In this document: positions 1,266 to 19,818 of the stretch, one piece after another
Numbering within the stretch: position 1 is the first letter of the stretch
How the letters are laid out: the number at the start of each line of letters is the position of its first letter
Virus record (IMG/VR): IMGVR_UViG_3300046534_001898
Source of the DNA: an uncultured virus (IMG/VR IMGVR_UViG_3300046534_001898)
Taxonomy: Duplodnaviria; Heunggongvirae; Uroviricota; Caudoviricetes
Strand: one strand, 5' to 3'
Length of the DNA stretch: 20,000 nucleotides
The notes under the pieces: model-generated
The model's input: only the letters and a program-made list of their open reading frames with translations
The model's database searches: none
What the model was told of the DNA's origin: nothing
Position numbers and translations under genes: made by a program

Positions 1266-1339
1266 GGGGACGCATGTGCCAAGGCTGGCGAGGATGCTTT
1301 GCAAGTAACCTGTGGTGAATTCGATTTTCACCGTCTCCA
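1266..1339 (+). tRNA. tRNA-Ala(TGC), atypical D region, copy 1
   Basis: Acceptor GGGGACG/CGTCTCC with G3:U70 and A73; loop TT-TGC-AA; T arm GTGAA-TTCGATT-TTCAC; extra nucleotides between acceptor and D stem. Confidence 0.8.
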
Positions 1340-1340
1340 C

Positions 1341-1494
1341 TAAAACAAAAGATGATAGTTACCGCATTGGCTGACTGACGAGAGCTACGTCAATAGTTAT
1401 AACAAGGGTTGTGTAGCGTTTTGATTTTAAACCTTAGCGGGTTTAAGGGATTTGAATCATAAGAACGACTTGTATTGCTTTTTACTTTTGTTTT
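1341..1494 (+). ncRNA. candidate structured ncRNA between Ala tRNAs
   Basis: Closing helix AAAACAAAAG/CTTTTGTTTT; hairpin TGACG-AGAGCTA-CGTCA; long irregular stem ACAAG..CGTT..TGATT..CCTTAG / TTAAGG..AATCA..AACG..CTTGT. Confidence 0.45.
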
Positions 1495-1499
1495 TATTT

Positions 1500-1556
1500 G
1501 GGGAGGTATAAGAGGTGTAAACGGTATACCCAAGGGTTCGACTCCCTTCCTCTCCA
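1500..1556 (+). ncRNA. mini tRNA-Ala-like RNA resembling the tmRNA tRNA-like domain
   Basis: Acceptor GGGGAGG/CCTCTCC (G3:U70, A73) and perfect T arm AAGGG-TTCGACT-CCCTT; between them only a 7-nt unpaired linker and one 6-bp hairpin GGTGTA-AACGG-TATACC. Confidence 0.7.
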
Positions 1557-1586
1557 CTAATAGTAGAAATAATAATTTATAAACAC

Positions 1587-3219: not shown

Positions 3220-4362
3220 ATGAAACTGAATTCTGTAGAAGAAATAAGGGAGACAAGTATTGAGAGATTTGTTGCAAAATACAAATTGAAGCATAAAGAT
3301 TATGGACATAAGTTCAGTCTTAAATACGATCAGCTTGATACTCCTAAGAAACCAGCTGCAAATGAGTGTAGAGGGATTGTTCTTTCAAACAATTTAGAAG
3401 TTCTTTCTATGCCTTTTGCTAGGTTCTCAAATTACAATGAGACTTCTCGGAAGGATATAGATTGGGAAACTGCAACGTATTGGGAGAAGACTGATGGAAC
3501 AATGATTCAATATTACTATGATCATATTATTGATAAATGGTGTGTTGGAACTACTGGTACAGCGGAAGCTGTAGATAATGTTTCTAGTAGAGATAAGATC
3601 AAGCAAATTGAGAATCATTATGATTTCAACTTGACTGATTTGTTTTACAAGGTTTGTGAAGAAAACGGGATTGACTTAACACAATGCGAAAAAGAAAATT
3701 ACACTTTCATATTTGAGCTTGCTACTGAATGTAATATTGTCATCAATAGCTATGAAAAAAGGCGTATAGTCCTTTTGGGGATTAGAGACTTAGCTTCTTT
3801 AAAAGAATTGTCTCAAGATGATTTGGATAGATGGGCAGAGGCTTTGAGTTGCGAAAGACCAAGGCAATACTTTTTTGAGTCTGAAACAGAAATGATTTCT
3901 TCTCTAAAAAATGTAAAGCATGGTGATGTTAATTTTGAGGGGTATGTAGTTGTTGATCAGAATCATAACAGGGTAAAAGTTAAATCTAATACCTACATTA
4001 TATTCTCTCAGTTCAATGGAGACATTGAATCCAGATGGAGGTTAGTGGATGTGGTTATTAGCAACGAAATAGATGAGGTAGGTTCTTACTTCCCAAATCT
4101 ATTGGAACCCATGAGAAGCATTGAAAAGAAGTATAAAGAATTAATCGCTCCGATACAAGAAAAATTTGAGTTCCTAAAGGAAAACATTGACTCACTTGAA
4201 AAGAAGGAATTCTTTATCGAGGCTCAAAAGGCAGTTAGCTTCGATAAGAAGAAGAAGATTCTTTTGGGTGTAATGAGCCAACTTCAAAGAGATCGTAATA
4301 TTGATTTCAATGATGCGGTAGATAAAATTGATAAAAGGAAATTGTATAAACTTTTGAAGTAA
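3220..4362 (+). CDS. T4 Rnl1-family RNA ligase
   Basis: ECRGIV..PFARFSNY, nucleotidyltransferase motif I EKTDGT, FIFEL, EGYVV, RVKVKS. Confidence 0.88.
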   Translation: MKLNSVEEIRETSIERFVAKYKLKHKDYGHKFSLKYDQLDTPKKPAANECRGIVLSNNLEVLSMPFARFSNYNETSRKDIDWETATYWEKTDGTMIQYYYDHIIDKWCVGTTGTAEAVDNVSSRDKIKQIENHYDFNLTDLFYKVCEENGIDLTQCEKENYTFIFELATECNIVINSYEKRRIVLLGIRDLASLKELSQDDLDRWAEALSCERPRQYFFESETEMISSLKNVKHGDVNFEGYVVVDQNHNRVKVKSNTYIIFSQFNGDIESRWRLVDVVISNEIDEVGSYFPNLLEPMRSIEKKYKELIAPIQEKFEFLKENIDSLEKKEFFIEAQKAVSFDKKKKILLGVMSQLQRDRNIDFNDAVDKIDKRKLYKLLK

Positions 4363-4702: not shown

Positions 4703-6199
4703 ATGGCTGGATTAAAAATTACAGGTAAGGACTTATTAGAGATTGGTTTCGAGAGTGGAAAAACTCTTGGGGTGACTCTTGATGTCGTTAGAAAAGGTTA
4801 CAAGCGTGATCACTGGGATGATGTAACTCCAGTCTTGAAGAAGATGTTGGCTGATCCAGAGGCTTTCTTGAATCACAATATTCTTGGGAGAGCTGCTGAG
4901 ACTTTAATCGTTAAGACAGAATTCGACCCAACCGTTGCTATCAATGACGAAAGTGTTCGTTACGATGTTTATGGTAAGGAAGGAATTGAGCAGGGAGCTT
5001 TCGATCAAATTGATTGGGCTACTAAGTTGCCAGTTGCTATTAGAGGAGCTTTAATGCCAGATGCTCACCAAGGATATGGTTTACCAATCGGAGGTGTACT
5101 TGCAACTGATAACGCTATTATTCCTTACGGAGTAGGTGTTGATATCGGTTGTAGAATGTGTTTGACAGTTTATGACACTAAAAGCGATTTCATTACTGGA
5201 AACAGAAAGTTCTTAGCTGATATCTTGAGGAAGAATGCTTTCTTTGGAATCAACGGAAACGACATTACCCTTGAGCATGAGATTTTGGATAACATCAATG
5301 AGACTGATGTGGTCTTTGCTAGAAATTTAATTGATAAAGCGCAAGCTCAATTAGGAACTTCTGGTGGAGGAAATCATTTCATTGACTTTGGACATGTTGA
5401 TATCACTGATGTTAATAACGAGTTTGGATTAGAAATAGGAAGGTACTTTGGTATCTTGTCACACTCAGGATCGAGAGGTTTTGGTGCTAAGATTTCTAAT
5501 GAGTATACCGAAAGAGCGAGAGCTTCTTGTATGCTTCCATCACAAGTTAAAGACTTGGCTTGGTTAGATATGGATTCTCAGGATGGTCATGAGTATTGGG
5601 TCGCTATGAATTTAGCGGGAGATTATGCTTCGGCTTGTCACGAGAAGATGCATGAGAGAATATCGACTGCTCTTGGTATTGAAGAAGTCGGAAGAGTAGA
5701 GAATCACCACAACTTCGCATGGAAGGAAATGGTGAACGGCAAGGAGGCTATTGTTCACCGTAAGGGAGCGACTCCAGCTGGTGAGGGAGTTATGGGAATC
5801 ATACCGGGTTCGATGGTCTCAAAAGGATATATCGTTCGTGGTAAAGGGAATCCACACTCTTTATCTTCAGCTTCTCACGGAGCAGGAAGACTACACTCAA
5901 GAACAAAGTGTAAAGAGTTGTTCAACAAAGAAACAGTAGCTGCAACGTTGAGAAACGCTGAAGTAACACTTATTGGTGGAGGTCTCGATGAGGCTCCAGA
6001 TGCTTACAAAGATATTGACACAGTTATGTCTTACCAGAATAACTTGGTTGATATTGTAGGAAGTTTCACTCCACAAGTTGTTCGTATGGCTTCTAGTTCT
6101 GAAGAAGGTCTTTCTTGGAAGGAACGTAAAGATAAGAAGAAAAAAGACCAAGAACGTAAAATAAGACAAAGTAAAGAAAGAGAGCGTAAGATGCGTTAA
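4703..6199 (+). CDS. rtcB: RtcB family RNA ligase (3'-phosphate/5'-OH)
   Basis: MPDAHQGYGLPIGG, GVDIGC, LGTSGGGNHF, HSGSRG, NHHN, VHRKGAT, IPGSM, SASHGAGR, DEAPDAYK; highly basic C-terminal tail. Confidence 0.96.
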   Translation: MAGLKITGKDLLEIGFESGKTLGVTLDVVRKGYKRDHWDDVTPVLKKMLADPEAFLNHNILGRAAETLIVKTEFDPTVAINDESVRYDVYGKEGIEQGAFDQIDWATKLPVAIRGALMPDAHQGYGLPIGGVLATDNAIIPYGVGVDIGCRMCLTVYDTKSDFITGNRKFLADILRKNAFFGINGNDITLEHEILDNINETDVVFARNLIDKAQAQLGTSGGGNHFIDFGHVDITDVNNEFGLEIGRYFGILSHSGSRGFGAKISNEYTERARASCMLPSQVKDLAWLDMDSQDGHEYWVAMNLAGDYASACHEKMHERISTALGIEEVGRVENHHNFAWKEMVNGKEAIVHRKGATPAGEGVMGIIPGSMVSKGYIVRGKGNPHSLSSASHGAGRLHSRTKCKELFNKETVAATLRNAEVTLIGGGLDEAPDAYKDIDTVMSYQNNLVDIVGSFTPQVVRMASSSEEGLSWKERKDKKKKDQERKIRQSKERERKMR

Positions 6200-6215: not shown

Positions 6216-6303
6216 GGCAATATGGCAGAGTGGTCAATTGCGCTCGGCTCATATCCGAGTTTCCGAAAGGATACCGTTGGTTCAAATCCAACTATTGCCA
6301 CCA
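6216..6303 (+). tRNA. tRNA with CAT anticodon (Met or Ile2) and a long variable arm
   Basis: Acceptor GGCAATA/TATTGCC plus ACCA, anticodon arm CTCGG-CTCATAT-CCGAG, variable hairpin TCC-GAAA-GGA, T arm GTTGG-TTCAAAT-CCAAC. Confidence 0.88.
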
Positions 6304-7430: not shown

Positions 7431-7886
7431 ATGATATTAATAGATAAGAATGGAACCACTGGTTGGTCTCATATGGTGGCATCCACAGTCTCGGAATTGC
7501 ATGATTTTGCAAAAAGGGTAGGTTGCACAAGATTTTCGAACAAGAGAGGTAAATACCAACCTCACTATGATGTTCGGGACGAAGAGTTTGATAAAGCAGT
7601 TGATCTAGGGGCAGTCCTAGTATCGAGTAAAGCGATTATACATTTTTTAAGATTACATTATGGTTCTGATATTTCTCAGGATCGTATCAATAAGTTGGTT
7701 ATGCTTTGGGAGGTGTTTCATTTTGCTCTTAATGAGGAAACATTAGAAACCTCTAGTGATTCCCATAAAGAGAAGTTAAAAAAAATGATGGAATCTGCCG
7801 AGAAGAGATATGATGAATATTCAGAATTTGGATCGGAAGTGGCGGAGTATTTGGCGATGTTTGAATTAATTTCAAAAGTTTTTTAA
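7431..7886 (+). CDS. DUF4031-domain protein
   Basis: WSHMVASTVSELHDFAKRVG...PHYDV...AVDLGAV pattern typical of DUF4031, plus a helical C-terminal extension. Confidence 0.75.
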   Translation: MILIDKNGTTGWSHMVASTVSELHDFAKRVGCTRFSNKRGKYQPHYDVRDEEFDKAVDLGAVLVSSKAIIHFLRLHYGSDISQDRINKLVMLWEVFHFALNEETLETSSDSHKEKLKKMMESAEKRYDEYSEFGSEVAEYLAMFELISKVF

Positions 7887-7892
7887 AAAAAG

Positions 7893-7923
7893 TTTGCCAA
7901 TTAGAAAAACATTCATATATTTG
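7893..7923 (+). promoter_or_regulatory. Bacteroidota promoter (-33 TTTG, -7 TATATTTG)
   Basis: TTTG at 7893-7896, 19-nt spacer, TATATTTG at 7916-7923, followed by a leader hairpin ATTAGGGGAAACGTTCCTTAAT. Confidence 0.75.
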
Positions 7924-7961
7924 CATCCGCATTAGGGGAAACGTTCCTTAATAAATACCTG

Positions 7962-8090
7962 TCCGATGTAGCTCAGTGGTAGAGCGCCTAATATCTCATT
8001 TAGAGATTATGAAATTTTTAGGTTTTGACATTATAAATGATACTACGCATTCCAAGCGGGAGGTCGGGGGTTCGATTCCCTCCATCGGCA
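7962..8090 (+). ncRNA. tRNA-Gly(TCC)-like RNA with a ~57-nt structured insert in the anticodon stem
   Basis: Acceptor TCCGATG/CATCGGC, canonical D arm GCTC-AGTGGTA-GAGC, insert at ~7989-8045, then CGC-ATTCCAA-GCGGG and T arm GGGGG-TTCGATT-CCCTC. Confidence 0.85.
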
Positions 8091-8092
8091 CT

Positions 8093-8329
8093 AAAATTAG
8101 ACATTTAATAGCTTACTCAACTCCAAATATGAAAAACAGCTATTGAGATTACTAATTTTTTAATTAGACACACAACATTAGTGAGACATTTTTTAGCTTA
8201 CTCTACAACTATTAATTGAAAACAGCAGCTGAAGAGATTACTCACTTATAAAATTATAAAACATTGACTTAGACATTTGGTAGCTTACTCAACTCAAATG
8301 TGAAAAACAGCTGCAAAGATTACTAAGTC
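8093..8329 (+). repeat. three tandem structured RNA motif units (~87-nt period)
   Basis: Units at 8093-8159, 8180-8246 and 8266-8329, each with the layout outer stem-ACATTT-(N2)TAGCT-TACTC-loop-AGCT(N3)-(G/A)AGATTA-outer stem; the outer stems covary. Confidence 0.88.
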
Positions 8330-8360
8330 TTTATTATTAACTTTTAATACCCTATACAAA

Positions 8361-10415
8361 ATGAGACATTTTATTACATTTCAAAAGCTTAAAGGAATCT
8401 ATGTAGGTTCTGGAGACGCTAGTGTTGATAACTCAGGACTAGTACACCAAATTAATCACGAACTGATGTCAGTTGGTTATGTGATGGATCAGGAGCTTTT
8501 CCAAACGCTTTCTAAGCAGTCGGAAGAGACTTTGAATGAGGTGTATACTCAGATTGTTGCAGGGATTAGAAAAGTCGTTCCACAAGGAACTTTTGAGCCA
8601 ATCTACAGAAACTTTCCGCAGAGTGTCGTGCAAATGTCACACTTCGAATTTGTTGTTAATGCGATTATGCATTACTGGAGTTTTGGTACATGGAGACCAG
8701 AGGACGCTGAGTACATCAACCGAGAGCTTAAGCTTGAGGCTGTTAACTACAAGGCTGTTCGTTTGATTAACTCTGCCCAATATTTTGGTATCTTCACTAA
8801 CATCCTATTTTCAGTAAATTCTATTTCTGGATTCGATAAGGAATGTGTTGATTTCTACCTTGATAATCACGCAGACAATATTAAGCTTTCTGGAATCAAG
8901 TTCAAGGAGACTTTAGCTTACGTTGGTCAGAGATTAATGGATGCATCTACATCTGCTCTTCCGACAACCGAGAATGGGGAAGCGGTTCTTCCAACTAGAA
9001 ATGCAACAGATATCCTTAGGGTTTATGCTGCATACTCTGGTGGGGATGAAGGTCTGAAAGAGAACACTAAGTTCAAGAAGTTGAAGTCATCTCAAAGAAG
9101 GCTTCTTAGAAATTCGCTTAACAATTCGTACAACTTGGAGGATTCCTTCAAAACGTACCGTGAGCAATGGTTGAGAGTTTTATTCTACTTGAACCCAAGA
9201 CAGTACTCTGAAAGATACCCTAACTTGGGAATCTTCTCTGATGCGTTGAGAAACGCACCAGATTCTCTTGAAACTTTCAATGCTAAAATTGAAAAGTATC
9301 TTAGAAATGAGGATGAGGCAATCTTTGATCTTTTGACAAAGAGAGCTGGTGTCTTTTCTAGAAGACTGGATCATTTGGTTCGAATCTTTGGAAAGACTGC
9401 CATCCAGAAGTATGTTGCTTTAGATAACATCACCTTTACTAACTTAGTTGCAACTTACAACCATTTCGATGGTCGTGATAAGGAGCAAGCTGGTAGGGGA
9501 GTTATCTTAGCTTCGCAGGGCGCTTCTAACGTTGTTAATTATGATGGTTTGGCTCCACTTGACACCAAGTTGGTAACCTACATCAAAGGTGCGATTATGA
9601 CACGTCTACGTGACTTTAAGATTGATGATAACAAGAAGTATTTCATTGATAGATCATTGTACTACACTCCAATGGCGATGAACAACAGAGCTTCCGAGCT
9701 TTCGTTGGATTCAAAAGTGATCGGTGAGTCAGTAATCTACGAAGGAAAGAAGACACTTCGTTTGTATGTTCACTGGGAAGGGCGTTCAGATATTGATCTT
9801 TCAGCATTTATTATCGATAACGAGAATAATGTAAAGAAGATTGGTTGGAACTCTTACCACCATTCAGATGGGTATGTTGTTTACTCAGGTGACAACACAG
9901 GTCTAGAGGATAAGAATGCCGAGTATATGGACATCAACGTTAAGGACGTTCCTAAAAATGTTGAGTGGATCATTACGGAAGCTCGAATCTATAGCGGGCC
10001 ATCTACTTACGCTGACTACAACGGAAAGGCTCATATGGGATGGATGGAAACAAATCACCCAGAAGAAAACTTGCACTGGCAACCTACTAAGTTGGTAAAT
10101 GCTAAGTTGCTTCAAGCTAAAGCTAGCACTGCTTATTTGATGGCATATCATGCCCCAACTAAAAGCGTTGTTTATCTTGACATGGCAATGGGTAGTTCGT
10201 CAGTATCTAATAACCAAGATGCTGTTAAAATGAGAATGTTCTTGGAATCATTCATTAGTTTGGATGATGGACAAGATATTTCTTGGGACAAATTGAATCA
10301 AGGACATTTGTTAGAGCTTAGGCTTCCTAACATTGTAGAAGATTCAAAAGAAGCTGATGTTGTTTTTGATGGAGCATCATCGGTGGATGAAATCTCGACT
10401 CTGATTACGTCATAA
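8361..10415 (+). CDS. large helical protein with a C-terminal TerD-like domain (resembles a RING-less MXAN_6230/SCO0854-type protein; possibly ROT/TROVE-like)
   Basis: PIYRNFPQSV..NAIMHYWS, TDILRV..SGGD, RAGVFSRRLDHLVR; C-terminal LRLYVHW..DIDLSA..YSGD..AEYMDI is TerD-like. Confidence 0.65.
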   Translation: MRHFITFQKLKGIYVGSGDASVDNSGLVHQINHELMSVGYVMDQELFQTLSKQSEETLNEVYTQIVAGIRKVVPQGTFEPIYRNFPQSVVQMSHFEFVVNAIMHYWSFGTWRPEDAEYINRELKLEAVNYKAVRLINSAQYFGIFTNILFSVNSISGFDKECVDFYLDNHADNIKLSGIKFKETLAYVGQRLMDASTSALPTTENGEAVLPTRNATDILRVYAAYSGGDEGLKENTKFKKLKSSQRRLLRNSLNNSYNLEDSFKTYREQWLRVLFYLNPRQYSERYPNLGIFSDALRNAPDSLETFNAKIEKYLRNEDEAIFDLLTKRAGVFSRRLDHLVRIFGKTAIQKYVALDNITFTNLVATYNHFDGRDKEQAGRGVILASQGASNVVNYDGLAPLDTKLVTYIKGAIMTRLRDFKIDDNKKYFIDRSLYYTPMAMNNRASELSLDSKVIGESVIYEGKKTLRLYVHWEGRSDIDLSAFIIDNENNVKKIGWNSYHHSDGYVVYSGDNTGLEDKNAEYMDINVKDVPKNVEWIITEARIYSGPSTYADYNGKAHMGWMETNHPEENLHWQPTKLVNAKLLQAKASTAYLMAYHAPTKSVVYLDMAMGSSSVSNNQDAVKMRMFLESFISLDDGQDISWDKLNQGHLLELRLPNIVEDSKEADVVFDGASSVDEISTLITS

Positions 10416-10436
10416 CTGAGATTTCATGTGGGAGCA

Positions 10437-10469
10437 AAAGAGGGGTGGATTTATTCATCCCTTTTTTTT
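10437..10469 (+). terminator. intrinsic terminator
   Basis: AGGGGTGGA-TTTA-TTCATCCCT followed by a T run. Confidence 0.8.
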
Positions 10470-10605: not shown

Positions 10606-11412
10606 ATGAAAAATCATTCTAAAAACCCACGATACAAAGAGCTTCTTGCTCTTGAAGATCGTAAGTCAGAAATTTGGCAAGCCAAAAGAAAGAATCGCAT
10701 CAAACTTGATGAACCTTATCATCGAGGATACAATCACTCTCTTGTGCCGAGACATGATATCCAAAATCGAGAAGATGCTTGGGTGTTCTGGGCTATCTGC
10801 GAACTTTTTGTTAGAAGCAAATACACAAGAAGACAAAAGCCGTCAACCAAAGAAAAGAAAATTGGTTGGAACGCTCTTCAGTCTTATTACCCAACCGTTA
10901 GAAAAATTTCTGAGGAGGAATACAATAAGTATGTTCCTGCCATCCAGAAACACTTCACTCCTATTGAGTGGGATTACAGACTTGAGCCAGAATACAAGTG
11001 GACTAGTTTTTCTTTTAACAAAGATGACGGTTACTGGAATGATACTGGTAACATCAAAAAAGTTTGGAAAGCCTCAAGAAAAGGATACCAATGCACTATT
11101 CCTTCATTCTATTTCATAACCAAGACTGAAAAGAACATGGTTGAATACGGATACAACGTTGATGAGCTTCTTGAGCAAGAGCTTGCTGAAATCAACGATC
11201 TTCTTTACCGAGATTTCCGTCACGTCAACAAGTGGGACAAGTGGAGCTGTGGCGCTCCTAAACACTTCAGAGAAGCAGTCAACAAATCTAAGTCAGCTCA
11301 TAATAAGCGTGTGCTTAAGAGAATCGTTGAGCTTGATAACTCTGATGATGCCAATCGCCATAATGAAGAGTTTGTTCCTTTCAAAAGAGATGCGGGTTGG
11401 TACTGGTGGTAA
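10606..11412 (+). CDS. basic hypothetical protein
   Basis: 268-aa Lys/Arg/Trp-rich ORF with its own promoter and terminator. Confidence 0.8.
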   Translation: MKNHSKNPRYKELLALEDRKSEIWQAKRKNRIKLDEPYHRGYNHSLVPRHDIQNREDAWVFWAICELFVRSKYTRRQKPSTKEKKIGWNALQSYYPTVRKISEEEYNKYVPAIQKHFTPIEWDYRLEPEYKWTSFSFNKDDGYWNDTGNIKKVWKASRKGYQCTIPSFYFITKTEKNMVEYGYNVDELLEQELAEINDLLYRDFRHVNKWDKWSCGAPKHFREAVNKSKSAHNKRVLKRIVELDNSDDANRHNEEFVPFKRDAGWYWW

Positions 11413-12598: not shown

Positions 12599-15052
12599 AT
12601 GAAGAATTTACTTTTACTAATTTGCCTGTCTTTTGTATCAATTTCAATGGTGGCTCAGAACGATTTCAGCGTAGACGGAACTTTTACGTACACTGAAAAC
12701 GTAGACTTCGATAACCAATACCTAGAGAATCTCTCTACAGGTGGAGTCGCCTTGATTGACACCAATCAGGTAATTGTAATTGACTCCGATGGAGCAGTTA
12801 ATGCAGTGTCTCCTATAACTATTCCTTCAGGATGGAATTATGTAGATCAAAATGGAGTAGATCAAATGTCTACTTTTTATGATTCAGATTTTCCTACCGA
12901 TTGCGCTGTTTTCTATAATAACACTGATTTACTAAAAGTTAATTTGACTACGGGAGTAACTAGTTCGTTAAACGTTAGTGCTGGAATTCCAGAGATTGAT
13001 GATGCAGGTAATAGTACAGGAGCATCATTGACTTTTGATGTTATTCAAGTAACTTATGCATTTAGCTCCTTTTATCTTGTTTCATACAATGTGTTTGTAG
13101 ACGGAGTATATGATAGAAAGACGGCTTGTTTGTTTGATATGGAAGGAGGTGGAGCGTATGCTTCTGACATTTTTGAAAACTACATTACTGGAGACATGGG
13201 GTTATATGATCGAATTGTATATCTCCATTCAGATGTAACTAATAGTGGATCATTTTTAACAATCACAAACAATCTTATTACTAATAAAATTGATTACTCA
13301 GTTGTTGATGATGCCAATCCAATAGGCACAATTAATCTAAGTGACACATACACCGTAACGATTGATAACACATTTGCCACCAACTATAACTCACTTGGGA
13401 TCACTAACCTACAATCTACCTATTCAGTTGGAAATAATAGATGTCTTGTTATGGGGACAATAGGGGCAAATCAGTTTACGGTATTAGAGGCTAACGGAAC
13501 AATTTACTCATCGTTTACTTATCCTCCTTATCTAGTAAATTCACAGGCAACAATTACTGATGTAGATATTTATGATTCATCTACTGGAACAGGGGATTTT
13601 GATCCGTTAAATACTCACGTAATTGCTTTAACTTTTCAAGCAAGTAATTACTTATCACCAGCACCATACGGAATTAGTGTGTTTGATGCTCAAGGATGCC
13701 CTTGGCAGTTTTTCGCCAACAGCTCTTCTGGGTCATGTGTTTTTAATTCACAAGGTTTAGCGGGTGAAGGTTTGAATTTAAATGGTTTAGCAAAAGGAAT
13801 CCAGTTTGATTCCAATGGAAAAATATTAGTGTCAGGAGGAGATTTTGAAACATTTAACCAAGCAGGTTCTAACACAGTGTTTAGGGTTGGGGGGTTTGAA
13901 AGTGGTTCTATTTTGATTTTGGGATGTAATGATGTCTTGGCTGCAAACTACGATCCAAATGCCACATTTAATGACGGTACTTGTGATTACTCAGCCTTCA
14001 ATTTGATTTGCTATGCCTCTGTAAATGCTGATTCAACTGTTACGGTAAATTGGGCAGAAGGTTCAACAGAGTTTTCAGACTTTAGAATTTACCGTGAATC
14101 AGGATCGGTGGGCGTATTTGATTTAGTGTCTACTGTAAATGATGGAGATGACCTTATGAGAAGTTATAACGACACTGGAGTAAACGCTTTTGTTCAAGAG
14201 CATCGATATAAAGTTGTAGGGCTTCTTACGGCTTCTGATACGACCTCTGGAAATACTCCGCTAGCAAACTTATCTCTAGTAGCAGAACGTGGCACAATCA
14301 AGCTTAATTCGCTTCCAGATATTGATAGTCAAATAGTATTAACTTGGAACGCTCCAGCTAACACTCCACTGACTTCTTATTATATTGTAGAGACTGATAC
14401 AGAAACAGTTATTGACACAGTATCATCTAACGTTCTTTCGTACACTGTAATTAGTCCTTCAGTTGCAGGAGATTACTATATTTCTTTTGACGCACCAGCT
14501 TGTGTGGAAGGAAACTCTCAAAGTTTTACAGGAAATATAGCAAATAATCAGAAATCTAATAAAAATAGAGGAACCAATAAAAACTTAGTAGATGGTCTTG
14601 TTAGGTCAAATGCTGATAATGTCATTCGTGGATGCACTTACCAAATTGCCACCAATTATGATCCTCTAGCAACATCTGATAATGGTTCTTGCATTCTTGA
14701 TTGCGAAGATGATTGTCCTACTGACATAAATAACGATGGTGTTACCGATGCAGGTGACTTACTTATGTTCCTTGGAGGTTTTGGAAATTCTTGTGATGGC
14801 AGTGAGTTTGCCGACAATAACTTAAGATCAGAAGGTAGTTTAGAGTCGGTTGTAAAAAGTGTTCTCGATGAAATTGTGTTTTCACAAGATGTAGTTCAAC
14901 TTAGAGAGCCTATGCAGTTCGATATTTACTCAGTTAGTGGTCAGTTGCTAGTTAGTAAGTTCTCTGATCAAATTAACTTTAGACAGCTATCTTCAGGAAC
15001 GTACATTATTGTTACCGAAAGAGACTCTCGATACTTTGTGATCCAAAATTAA
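12599..15052 (+). CDS. secreted protein with a putative T9SS C-terminal sorting domain
   Basis: Sec signal MKNLLLLICLSFVSISMVAQ; two GCxxxxAxNYDPxATxxxGxC repeats; FN3-like segments; dockerin/EF-hand-like CPTDINNDGVTDAGDLLMFLGGFG; C-terminal IYSVSGQLL...LSSGTYII. Confidence 0.75.
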   Translation: MKNLLLLICLSFVSISMVAQNDFSVDGTFTYTENVDFDNQYLENLSTGGVALIDTNQVIVIDSDGAVNAVSPITIPSGWNYVDQNGVDQMSTFYDSDFPTDCAVFYNNTDLLKVNLTTGVTSSLNVSAGIPEIDDAGNSTGASLTFDVIQVTYAFSSFYLVSYNVFVDGVYDRKTACLFDMEGGGAYASDIFENYITGDMGLYDRIVYLHSDVTNSGSFLTITNNLITNKIDYSVVDDANPIGTINLSDTYTVTIDNTFATNYNSLGITNLQSTYSVGNNRCLVMGTIGANQFTVLEANGTIYSSFTYPPYLVNSQATITDVDIYDSSTGTGDFDPLNTHVIALTFQASNYLSPAPYGISVFDAQGCPWQFFANSSSGSCVFNSQGLAGEGLNLNGLAKGIQFDSNGKILVSGGDFETFNQAGSNTVFRVGGFESGSILILGCNDVLAANYDPNATFNDGTCDYSAFNLICYASVNADSTVTVNWAEGSTEFSDFRIYRESGSVGVFDLVSTVNDGDDLMRSYNDTGVNAFVQEHRYKVVGLLTASDTTSGNTPLANLSLVAERGTIKLNSLPDIDSQIVLTWNAPANTPLTSYYIVETDTETVIDTVSSNVLSYTVISPSVAGDYYISFDAPACVEGNSQSFTGNIANNQKSNKNRGTNKNLVDGLVRSNADNVIRGCTYQIATNYDPLATSDNGSCILDCEDDCPTDINNDGVTDAGDLLMFLGGFGNSCDGSEFADNNLRSEGSLESVVKSVLDEIVFSQDVVQLREPMQFDIYSVSGQLLVSKFSDQINFRQLSSGTYIIVTERDSRYFVIQN

Positions 15053-19024: not shown

Positions 19025-19818
19025 AAAATTTTCAGGCTGTTTGGAGTCTGTTTCTTGTCCTTCGGGGCTAGAATAGCTAACCCTCTTCGGAGGTGCAGAA
19101 AATAAGTGCCGTAAGGCATGTAAAGGTCGGGTTAACAACCGATTCGCCTTTTTCTTAAGTTCGCTTAATTGGAGGTCAACCAAAAAATGATGAGTATACT
19201 CTGGATGGCATAATTGCTGAAGGGGTCTCGTGTTTAGTGAATAGATGCGAGTGAGGTGTAACAGCCAATCTGTGTAGAAAACAGTTAATAAGAAAGTCAG
19301 GGGTTTTAATGCAAGTGTGAAAAGCGAGTGTTGAGTCCATAAGGTTTTAAATGCGTAAAGTTCCTTCGGGAGCAGTGTTTGCCACTTTGATCTCCGTATC
19401 AAAACGGAGTAGGAAGGCGTGTAGTATTTTGTGACGAAAGTTACGAAGCTACTCCTAAACCACGTCTTCCAGTTGAACTAAAAAGGTCGGATGCCAAATC
19501 CGAGTTTTTCACTATAAATGAAAAATCACAGCAAAAGTGTTTAGGCGTTGGATTTCCAAAAATTCTCTAAACCCATCCTTGAGGTGGGGATATGGAGGCT
19601 GCAAGCCTCGGTGTTTTGATGATGTGAGTATGATGATGATTGGCTTAGCGGTTGGTCGTTGTAGTAAAGCGTGTCGAGTAAGAACCAACGTAACGAAGTT
19701 GTTTCCCGTAAGGAGACCGAGATTACCGAGTACAGGTGGCAACATCTGTGGACATGAAACCTAACCGAAAGGGTACGGGGTTCTAAAGATCGGTACTAAA
19801 GCTTTAGTCTCAGGCTTT
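19025..19818 (+). ncRNA. large ornate ncRNA, GOLLD-like (ends approximate)
   Basis: ~800 nt, GC-richer than its flanks, no credible ORF; many UUCG/GNRA hairpins (CCTC-TTCG-GAGG, TGCC-GTAA-GGCA, GTGAC-GAAA-GTTAC, ACAGGTG-GCAA-CATCTGT); long-range helices GGAAGGCGTG/CACGTCTTCC and TACCGA/TCGGTA; bracketed by promoters and terminators. Confidence 0.7.

Follow-up and report, generated by a model that had tools for sequence, protein, structure and literature searches.

The 20,000-nucleotide (nt) stretch analysed here (the window) is the uncultured-virus record IMGVR_UViG_3300046534_001898 of IMG/VR, assigned to the Caudoviricetes. It encodes in succession a tRNA-shaped RNA, three further structured RNA units and a 684-amino-acid protein with a TerD domain (Table 1). 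An earlier interpretation made without database searches (the sequence-only reading) had placed these between one promoter and one terminator and proposed a ribonucleoprotein (RNP) system resembling that of Ro60 and the bacterial Y RNAs. Both sites are present, the second as a hairpin, and they probably bound one transcript. The upstream site fits the Bacteroidota -33/-7 consensus (TTTG ... TAnnTTTG). At 10 of 29 close homologous loci the 60 nt preceding the first unit contain a TAnnTTTG box, against a background of 0.043 per 60-nt window, and the position altered in a related strain (7918) is an n of the box. Scanning for sigma-70 sites gave a further site at 7894-7921 and 53 sites in total against 60 expected, that is, no excess.

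Table 1 Features of the window and of comparison loci (positions are those of the window unless a locus is named)
Feature	Position	Strand	Remarks
Bacteroidota-type promoter-like site	7893..7923	+	TTTG 7893-7896, 19-nt spacer, TATATTTG 7916-7923
Leader hairpin	7931..7952	+	9 bp, between promoter and tRNA chimera; z -0.5, stability not above shuffles
tRNA-shaped Y-like RNA	7962..8090	+	129 nt; Rfam tRNA match 43.1 bits
Grafted docking module, circularly permuted	7996..8044	+	Placed by comparison with other grafted copies; not the minimum-energy fold
Residual anticodon hairpin	8046..8058	+	3 bp (CGC/GCG), 7-nt loop, UCC at 34-36
Free unit 1	8092..8160	+	71 bits; outer stem, ACAU/GAUUA loop, inner helix, UUACU, 21-nt loop
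Free unit 2	8177..8249	+	67 bits; loop has 3-bp hairpin with 7-nt anticodon-like loop 8209-8215
Free unit 3	8264..8331	+	61 bits; ends 29 nt before start codon
684-amino-acid protein	8361..10415	+	RING-less MXAN_6230/SCO0854 relative; Ro60-like helical region and TerD
Helical-repeat region, residues 140-420	8778..9620	+	Aligns with TROVE ring of Rsr/Ro60
TerD domain, residues 459-627	9735..10241	+	Invariant D477, D479, G510-D511, E521
Intrinsic terminator-like hairpin	10436..10467	+	14 pairs, then U run
DUF4031 gene	7431-7886		Upstream; common only to closest relatives L011/L012
268-amino-acid gene product	10606-11412		Downstream; common only to closest relatives L011/L012
RtcB RNA ligase	4703..6199	+	PF01139 E 4e-80; context
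T4 Rnl1-type RNA ligase	3220..4362	+	TIGR02308 E 4.5e-16; phrog_562 E 9e-41; context
Five tRNA genes besides the chimera	30-103, 303-374, 379-453, 1587-1660, 6216-6303		Two tRNA-Asp, tRNA-Ala, weak tRNA (no ARAGORN call), tRNA-Met(CAT)
817-amino-acid secreted-looking protein	12599-15052	+	Weak fn3 (E 0.001) and type IX secretion tail (E 0.037)
GOLLD RNA	19412-19816	+	158.7 bits
Insert-bearing tRNA-shaped RNAs by canonical Ro60 genes	L408:396-521, L409 (three copies), L413:3267-3395, L414:2302-2423, L418:304-437, L423:338-470		Rfam scores tRNA, not YrlA

The docking module and its gene family

Each free unit runs, 5' to 3', through outer stem, ACAU, inner helix, UUACU, loop, the 3' strand of the inner helix, GAUUA and the 3' strand of the outer stem. 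The three are spaced by 85-89 nt and fold with z scores of -2.7 to -3.1. A model built from 54 units, including those of the window, finds only these three in the window (61-71 bits; next best 14). The motif had been counted four times, three times free and once within the tRNA, and every copy is there; the inner helix is however 9-10 bp long instead of 7, and the copy in the tRNA is circularly permuted. The start codon context, AGACAUUUU, is similar to the module's 5' strand; a strand to pair with it was not found, and we regard the similarity as chance.

Homologous loci came from viral contigs (10), metagenomes (59) and genomes (2), plus cultured phages. They yielded 94 units, of which 54 with short loops were aligned. 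These had been picked for 6 or 7 of 7 pairs, so that the proportion of paired cells (89.1%, against 54.8 +/- 1.2 in shuffled alignments) is partly built in, whereas the variety of pair types is not. Covariation establishes the RNA structure and the three hairpins covary as had been claimed, with a score of 0.851 against 0.193 when shuffled and 0.12-0.19 in slid registers. The inner helix is 97.6% paired and 9 of its 10 pairs vary on both sides; the U-G pair is invariant. No Rfam family covers the docking module.

The module is tightly linked to the gene family. Among the protein-found loci, collapsed at 90% protein identity (n = 52), 42 have a unit within 1 kb of the gene, against 3 of 52 in the opposite-strand control; L059, L072 and L075 have units visible by eye that come on top of the 42. 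In the close clade a unit is present at 29 of 32 loci, one miss being without upstream flank, and among the 31 loci with such a flank two (L035 and L042) have none. Tandem arrays of the module and insert-bearing tRNAs both occur in the flanks of homologous genes. At high-GC homologues of the close clade (L035, L042/L071, L040, L049) the gene follows a leucine-rich-repeat-like gene and no RNA unit was seen upstream; these loci are possibly RNA-less or have their RNAs elsewhere.

Distant homologues (22-32% identity) are accompanied by a second motif, type II, consisting of GGCYAY, a helix and CWUCCUUCU. Of 97 such units, 72 have a partner strand, and pairs of mixed type occur at 7 positions; model R1 is weak on type II units (21-29 bits). 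A DNA-only search of IMG/VR with the type II pattern gave 102 stretches; 65 lie near a family gene, all on the strand of that gene and many of them shortly 3' of its stop codon. The other 37 had no family gene in the sequence examined, which for many was 300-nt flanks only; some of these are real units in tRNA clusters and some are chance. Scans with the type I pattern, that of the window, are dominated by chance (4 of 46 near a family gene, and 3 of 117 among the matches listed), and the matches listed contained no new gene-bearing locus, just further units in known contigs.

In a FastTree protein tree, where L072, L075 and L404 sit on long branches, type I is limited to one clade (26 of 29 rows, support 100), and RING-bearing proteins have an RNA variant of their own in 5 of 8 rows. 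Motif labels change 14 times on the tree against 40.4 times when shuffled, kin sharing labels. That motif type tracks the protein tree is consistent with co-evolution and is no proof of it. In a genome sample of the phylum of G001, 19 of 301 genomes have the family gene, and a regular expression finds a unit in 10 of the 16 examined.

The tRNA-shaped RNA

The RNA upstream of the free units is, as the sequence-only reading had it, a tRNA-like molecule into which the motif is grafted; ARAGORN makes no call there. It has true tRNA connectivity and ends, with an acceptor that is neither closed nor permuted, in the order acceptor stem, D arm, 2-bp stub of the anticodon stem, grafted module, anticodon hairpin and T arm. 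The graft is a 57-nt insert in the 5' strand of the anticodon stem. Its 3' strand (7996-8009) comes first and its 5' strand (8028-8044) second, a small hairpin joins the reversed strands, and the tRNA body stands where the loop would be. Positions 7996-8005 pair with 8031-8040, with one A-G mismatch, beside GAUUA (8005-8009), ACAU (8028-8031) and AUACU (8040-8044). The same layout recurs in 10 other loci.

The RNA lacks the marks of a functional tRNA-Gly(UCC): the 5-bp anticodon stem is not intact, positions 1 and 72 form a U-C mismatch, and A73 is followed by CUA. CCA is not encoded; it could be added later. In run X7 a compensatory change (7966/8085) preserves the acceptor stem, a change at 8269 disrupts one outer-stem pair of unit 3, and CAU, GAUU and UACU are all unaltered. 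Two short contigs of run X20 fall within the gene; they leave the RNA units uncovered and are uninformative on expression.

The encoded protein

The gene encodes a TerD-domain protein, as claimed (PF02342, residues 474-547, E 7.7e-6). TerD proteins are known as a separate family (PDB 2kxt, 3ibz, 2qz7); here the domain is fused behind a putative helical ring, and no other ter genes occur in the window. The protein is homologous to MXAN_6230/SCO0854 (NF041916, Prok-RING_4 PF14447; E 8.9e-40, 136.6 bits, under the cut-off of 600), from which it differs in length (684 residues against about 860) and in having no RING finger (no CxxC). True MXAN_6230/SCO0854 members, which pass NF041916, are recovered by a profile search with the family and carry a related RNA module. 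The Pfam text for PF14447 reportedly describes ROT/TROVE-like repeats with TerD and suggests a role in RNA processing. The family is large, with 2,571 clusters (50% identity) at E <=0.001 and 1,172 at <=1e-30, and it also occurs in cultured phages.

The fold resembles that of Ro60. In the fold search three Ro60 chains alone exceed 115 aligned residues, two of them ranking first and second with modest Z, and the putative ring aligns over 233-268 residues (PDB 2nvo, 9l5y, 1yvp). Among the best non-family rows of BFVD are one TROVE protein (prob 0.92, E 0.068) and one Ro-like protein (prob 0.66). Foldseek against the PDB returned TerD only for the whole model, the remaining rows being non-significant, and no match at E 0.001 for the N-terminal model; the ESM Atlas gave unnamed or TerD-named clusters only (0.84-0.89), and a sequence search of solved structures TerD only. 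The TROVE profile PF05731 matches neither this protein nor appears among the families shown for 70 members, and hhalign gives a probability below 0.2% against TROVE. The C-terminal domain is TerD, not a vWA domain with MIDAS.

Displayed modules

What follows UUACU is a short loop, a T-arm minihelix or a tRNA, either permuted or whole. A full tRNA-like unit is found by regular expression at about 19 of the 52 protein-found loci, a count in which one call or more is false and one or more mislabelled. In thirteen of 55 T-arm modules there is a hairpin of 2-3 bp with a 7-nt loop (U33 being required), and in all 13 base 37 is a purine, which is G where base 36 is G (five modules) and A in the remaining eight. 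Real tRNAs obey the same rule, with G or A at 37 according to base 36. Strict anticodon-like hairpins occur in 13 of 59 short type I loops against 2.9 +/- 1.6 in dinucleotide shuffles (0/500 reach this number). With one mismatch allowed the count is 20 against 4.4, the commonest anticodons being UUU (7) and UGU (4). Type II loops give 10 of 51 against 3.7 +/- 1.8 (maximum 9 in 300 shuffles), with scattered anticodons. In the window unit 2 passes this test; units 1 and 3 fail.

Relation to Ro60 and YrlA

YrlA RNAs have two conserved motifs, GNCGAAN0-1G and YUAY (Chen et al., PMC4201824). The Rfam YrlA consensus (RF02553) consists of lower stem, internal loop, 7-bp helix, CUAc, short stub, T arm, closed acceptor and D arm. 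The RNAs described here share this layout: (i) lower stem, internal loop, upper helix, YUAY and tRNA-like domain come in the same order, the window RNA having both D and T arms; (ii) the permuted YrlA-type order, with UUACU at the place of YUAY, is found in relatives L004, L019, L022, L048, L072, L387, L388 and L391; (iii) UUACU occurs in 90 of 94 units, a figure partly built in by a search pattern that required TAC[TC], is invariant in alignment A4 and aligns to CUAc of the consensus; (iv) the units are encoded within 4 kb of the ring-protein gene and on its strand, as YrlA is next to Ro60; and (v) the tRNA-less units are companions in the manner of YrlB.

The differences are equally clear. 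The docking loop is CAU/GAUU, and in the distant clade GGCYAY...CUUCCUUCU, where YrlA has GNCGAAN0-1G; the YrlA motif is absent from 7925-8363 and found by regular expression in 1 of 94 units. YrlA as published has a closed acceptor stem, no anticodon loop and no free ends (bioRxiv 10.1101/312249, in the part available), whereas the window RNA has true ends and an anticodon loop. Nothing in the window matches RF02553 at its gathering score of 69 bits, and YrlA matches beside family genes stay below it (43.9, 37.8, 32.5, 31.1 and 29.8 bits). Unlike Ro60, the family protein has TerD in place of vWA, about 140 extra N-terminal residues and no detectable sequence similarity. Formally the protein is not a TROVE member (no profile match, no vWA) and the RNA is not a YrlA (score, docking motif).

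As a control we took canonical TROVE loci, the gene being present in 18 of 301 genomes, and scanned 14. Eight tRNA matches in them, roughly 120-135 nt long, bear an insert and have the architecture of the window chimera: the D arm is followed by a helix strand, a hairpin, a GCCGAAG-like motif, the second helix strand, in some cases UUAU, then a small hairpin and the T arm. The RNAs of L408, L409, L413, L414, L418 and L423 carry the Ro-binding motif in their insert and are likely Y RNAs with true tRNA ends that have gone unrecognised. The grafted design is thus shared with the Ro60 world; what sets the TerD family apart is the docking loop. The window system had been called analogous to the Ro60/Y RNA system and different from it. 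It is indeed Y-RNA-like and distinct, in docking loop and TerD domain, but the fold search leads to Ro60, and the two are probably homologous, not merely analogous.

Some canonical loci showed further peculiarities. In L412 (= L436, G292) and L411, Y-like RNAs lie downstream of the Ro60 gene. Their loop starts with a part of 23S rRNA, helix 69, which L412 reproduces exactly and L411 with differences; an 18-mer of the L412 loop also occurs in the large-subunit rRNA of another genome. The loop is possibly an rRNA-mimic module. L407, L411, L412 and L413 have clusters of atypical tRNA genes around the Ro60 gene, with up to nine matches in L407.

In a review of jumbo phages, ROT/TROVE proteins figure as RNP platforms that serve RNA repair and have a tRNA-like partner (PMC7824862); in the available portion of its main text they are not tied to TerD. 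The main text of PMC5737381 mentions neither TerD nor TROVE nor Y RNA, and a 2026 preprint on tRNA mimics concerns, in the part available, three other families. Full-text searches of the openly available literature gave no account of RNAs by TROVE-like/TerD genes and no RNA partner for the MXAN_6230/SCO0854 family.

Discussion

We propose that the locus encodes a divergent Ro60/Y-RNA RNP system that presents tRNA parts, an undescribed second branch of the Ro60/Y-RNA systems, and consider this probable. The 684-residue protein would be a Ro60-like helical ring with a TerD domain in place of the vWA cap, and TerD might sense a metal or nucleotide ligand. The operon transcript would be cut into separate units, each a Y-type adaptor with a constant docking stem and an exchangeable module. 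The stem (outer helix, CAU/GAUU internal loop, 9-10-bp helix and UUACU) is likely what the protein binds. The module would be a short loop, an anticodon hairpin or a T-arm minihelix, or else a tRNA, either permuted as in YrlA or whole and with true ends.

The particle would present protected tRNA parts, anticodon loops above all, to host defence nucleases that cut tRNA or to tRNA-processing enzymes; it could act as a decoy or sensor in infection and help to steer damaged RNA to repair or decay. Since tRNA-Lys(UUU) and tRNA-Thr(UGU) are prime PARIS targets (PMC12409363) and YrlA has been proposed as a competitive inhibitor of an anticodon nuclease (PMC7790460), the displayed UUU and UGU loops favour a decoy or sensor role; taken on its own, we hold this purpose tentatively, as a nearly even matter. 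A bolder version, which we rather doubt, is that this branch is widespread, that a ligand-sensing TerD cap gates a ring with an exchangeable panel of tRNA baits, and that large phages use it as an RNA-programmed counter-defence against anticodon nucleases. The panel would span whole tRNAs, elbows, T arms and bare anticodon loops such as Lys-UUU and Thr-UGU, retuned by few-base changes in the loop.

Several observations weigh against our proposal. Forcing the grafted helix costs 3.4 kcal/mol (-28.7 vs -32.1, ViennaRNA), with a mean pair probability of 0.01. Changes in run X7 fall at 7991 and 7993, which are paired in the alternative fold and lie in an unpaired linker in the grafted model. Changes at 8051-8052 turn the pseudo-anticodon from UCC into CAC in runs X7 and X8, near-identical strains, as if it were unconstrained. 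The protein has no sequence similarity to TROVE, and its Z against Ro60 is modest. On the other side, 8-9 of 9 pairs of the grafted helix are kept in 14 of 15 grafted copies despite differing sequences; we regard it as the weakest of the four copies, supported by comparison, not by energy.

An unconstrained anticodon would suit a particle of the same composition with another task, in which the RNA links the ring to an exoribonuclease such as PNPase, so that structured RNA is degraded or the host nuclease damped, and the anticodon loops are remnants of the tRNA genes from which the RNAs descend. Such RYPER complexes are established for Rsr of D. radiodurans, and the Ro60 of phage phiLo forms RYPER-like complexes and attenuates PNPase (PMC4201824, PMC12135203). 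Anticodon-like hairpins nevertheless recur in units without any other tRNA part, and their change between strains also fits diversifying selection; we consider this task possible, though not likely.

Autoregulation is improbable as the whole explanation. The protein would then bind its own leader to control its synthesis, with the tRNA-like parts incidental, as the position of a unit 60-100 nt before the start codon in most close-clade loci, or ending at the start codon in L394, might suggest. Many units, however, are found beyond the stop codon, and some, in L005, L006 and L008, sit in tRNA clusters at a distance of 5-8 kb; there are up to six copies, and the tRNA-like modules are of three designs. 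A secondary autoregulatory role may exist.

We give equally little weight to two further ideas, namely that the helical repeats are convergent and the protein unrelated to Ro60, or that the insert is an intron which RtcB or Rnl1 removes to give a working tRNA-Gly. Missing sequence similarity and the modest Z would fit convergence, but the whole domain aligns to three independent Ro60 structures and the RNA layout matches as well. Removal of the insert would leave a 7-nt UCC loop, and two RNA ligases are encoded nearby; yet the insert is the same module that occurs free, relatives have the anticodon CAC, the contigs of the four metagenome runs compared contain no spliced joint, and the U1-C72, A73 acceptor end departs from the usual Gly identity elements.

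A type III toxin-antitoxin-like pair, in which tandem RNA repeats encoded upstream of a toxin gene neutralise its product, would match the arrangement of tandem structured repeats and a single gene right behind them with a shared promoter, but is very improbable given that no ToxN, AbiQ or nuclease domain appears in Pfam, NCBIfam, PHROGs or fold searches, that 2 of 31 close-clade loci with upstream flank have no unit and that no terminator-like site separates repeats from gene.

The divergent Ro60/Y-RNA system that we favour would give an uncharacterised protein family a candidate RNA partner and a mechanism. It also suggests that Y RNAs are more widespread and varied than in Rfam, and that some of them, overlooked or misclassified by tRNA finders, have anticodon loops and the ends of a true tRNA. 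Since the short units come close to a minimal form, in which docking stem and displayed module can be mutated independently, they allow a direct test of what is presented by bacterial Y RNAs and to which partners.

Genomic setting

The window appears to come from a large phage of Bacteroidota, on account of its tRNA genes, tyrosyl-tRNA synthetase, Rnl1, RtcB, NUDIX, GOLLD RNA and TAnnTTTG boxes; its sequence is present in ice and marine metagenome runs. RtcB and Rnl1 are encoded upstream as the sequence-only reading stated, but the linkage is local. In a census of 98 family loci (median 6 kb examined) neither occurs in the 97 others. RNA-repair or NAD-related neighbours recur weakly: RlaP (3), Thg1 (3), Rnl2-like (2), and HAD_SAK_2, Macro and YAcAr (2 each).

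A weaker GOLLD match also lies 3' of the homologous gene in L036. A partial tmRNA match at 1500-1559 (+; 33.4 bits) is below cut-off and ARAGORN calls no tmRNA; the region of about 1300-1560 (+) is possibly a divergent phage tmRNA. The tRNA-Met(CAT) has an unusually long variable arm. The 817-residue secreted-looking protein is consistent with a Bacteroidota host.

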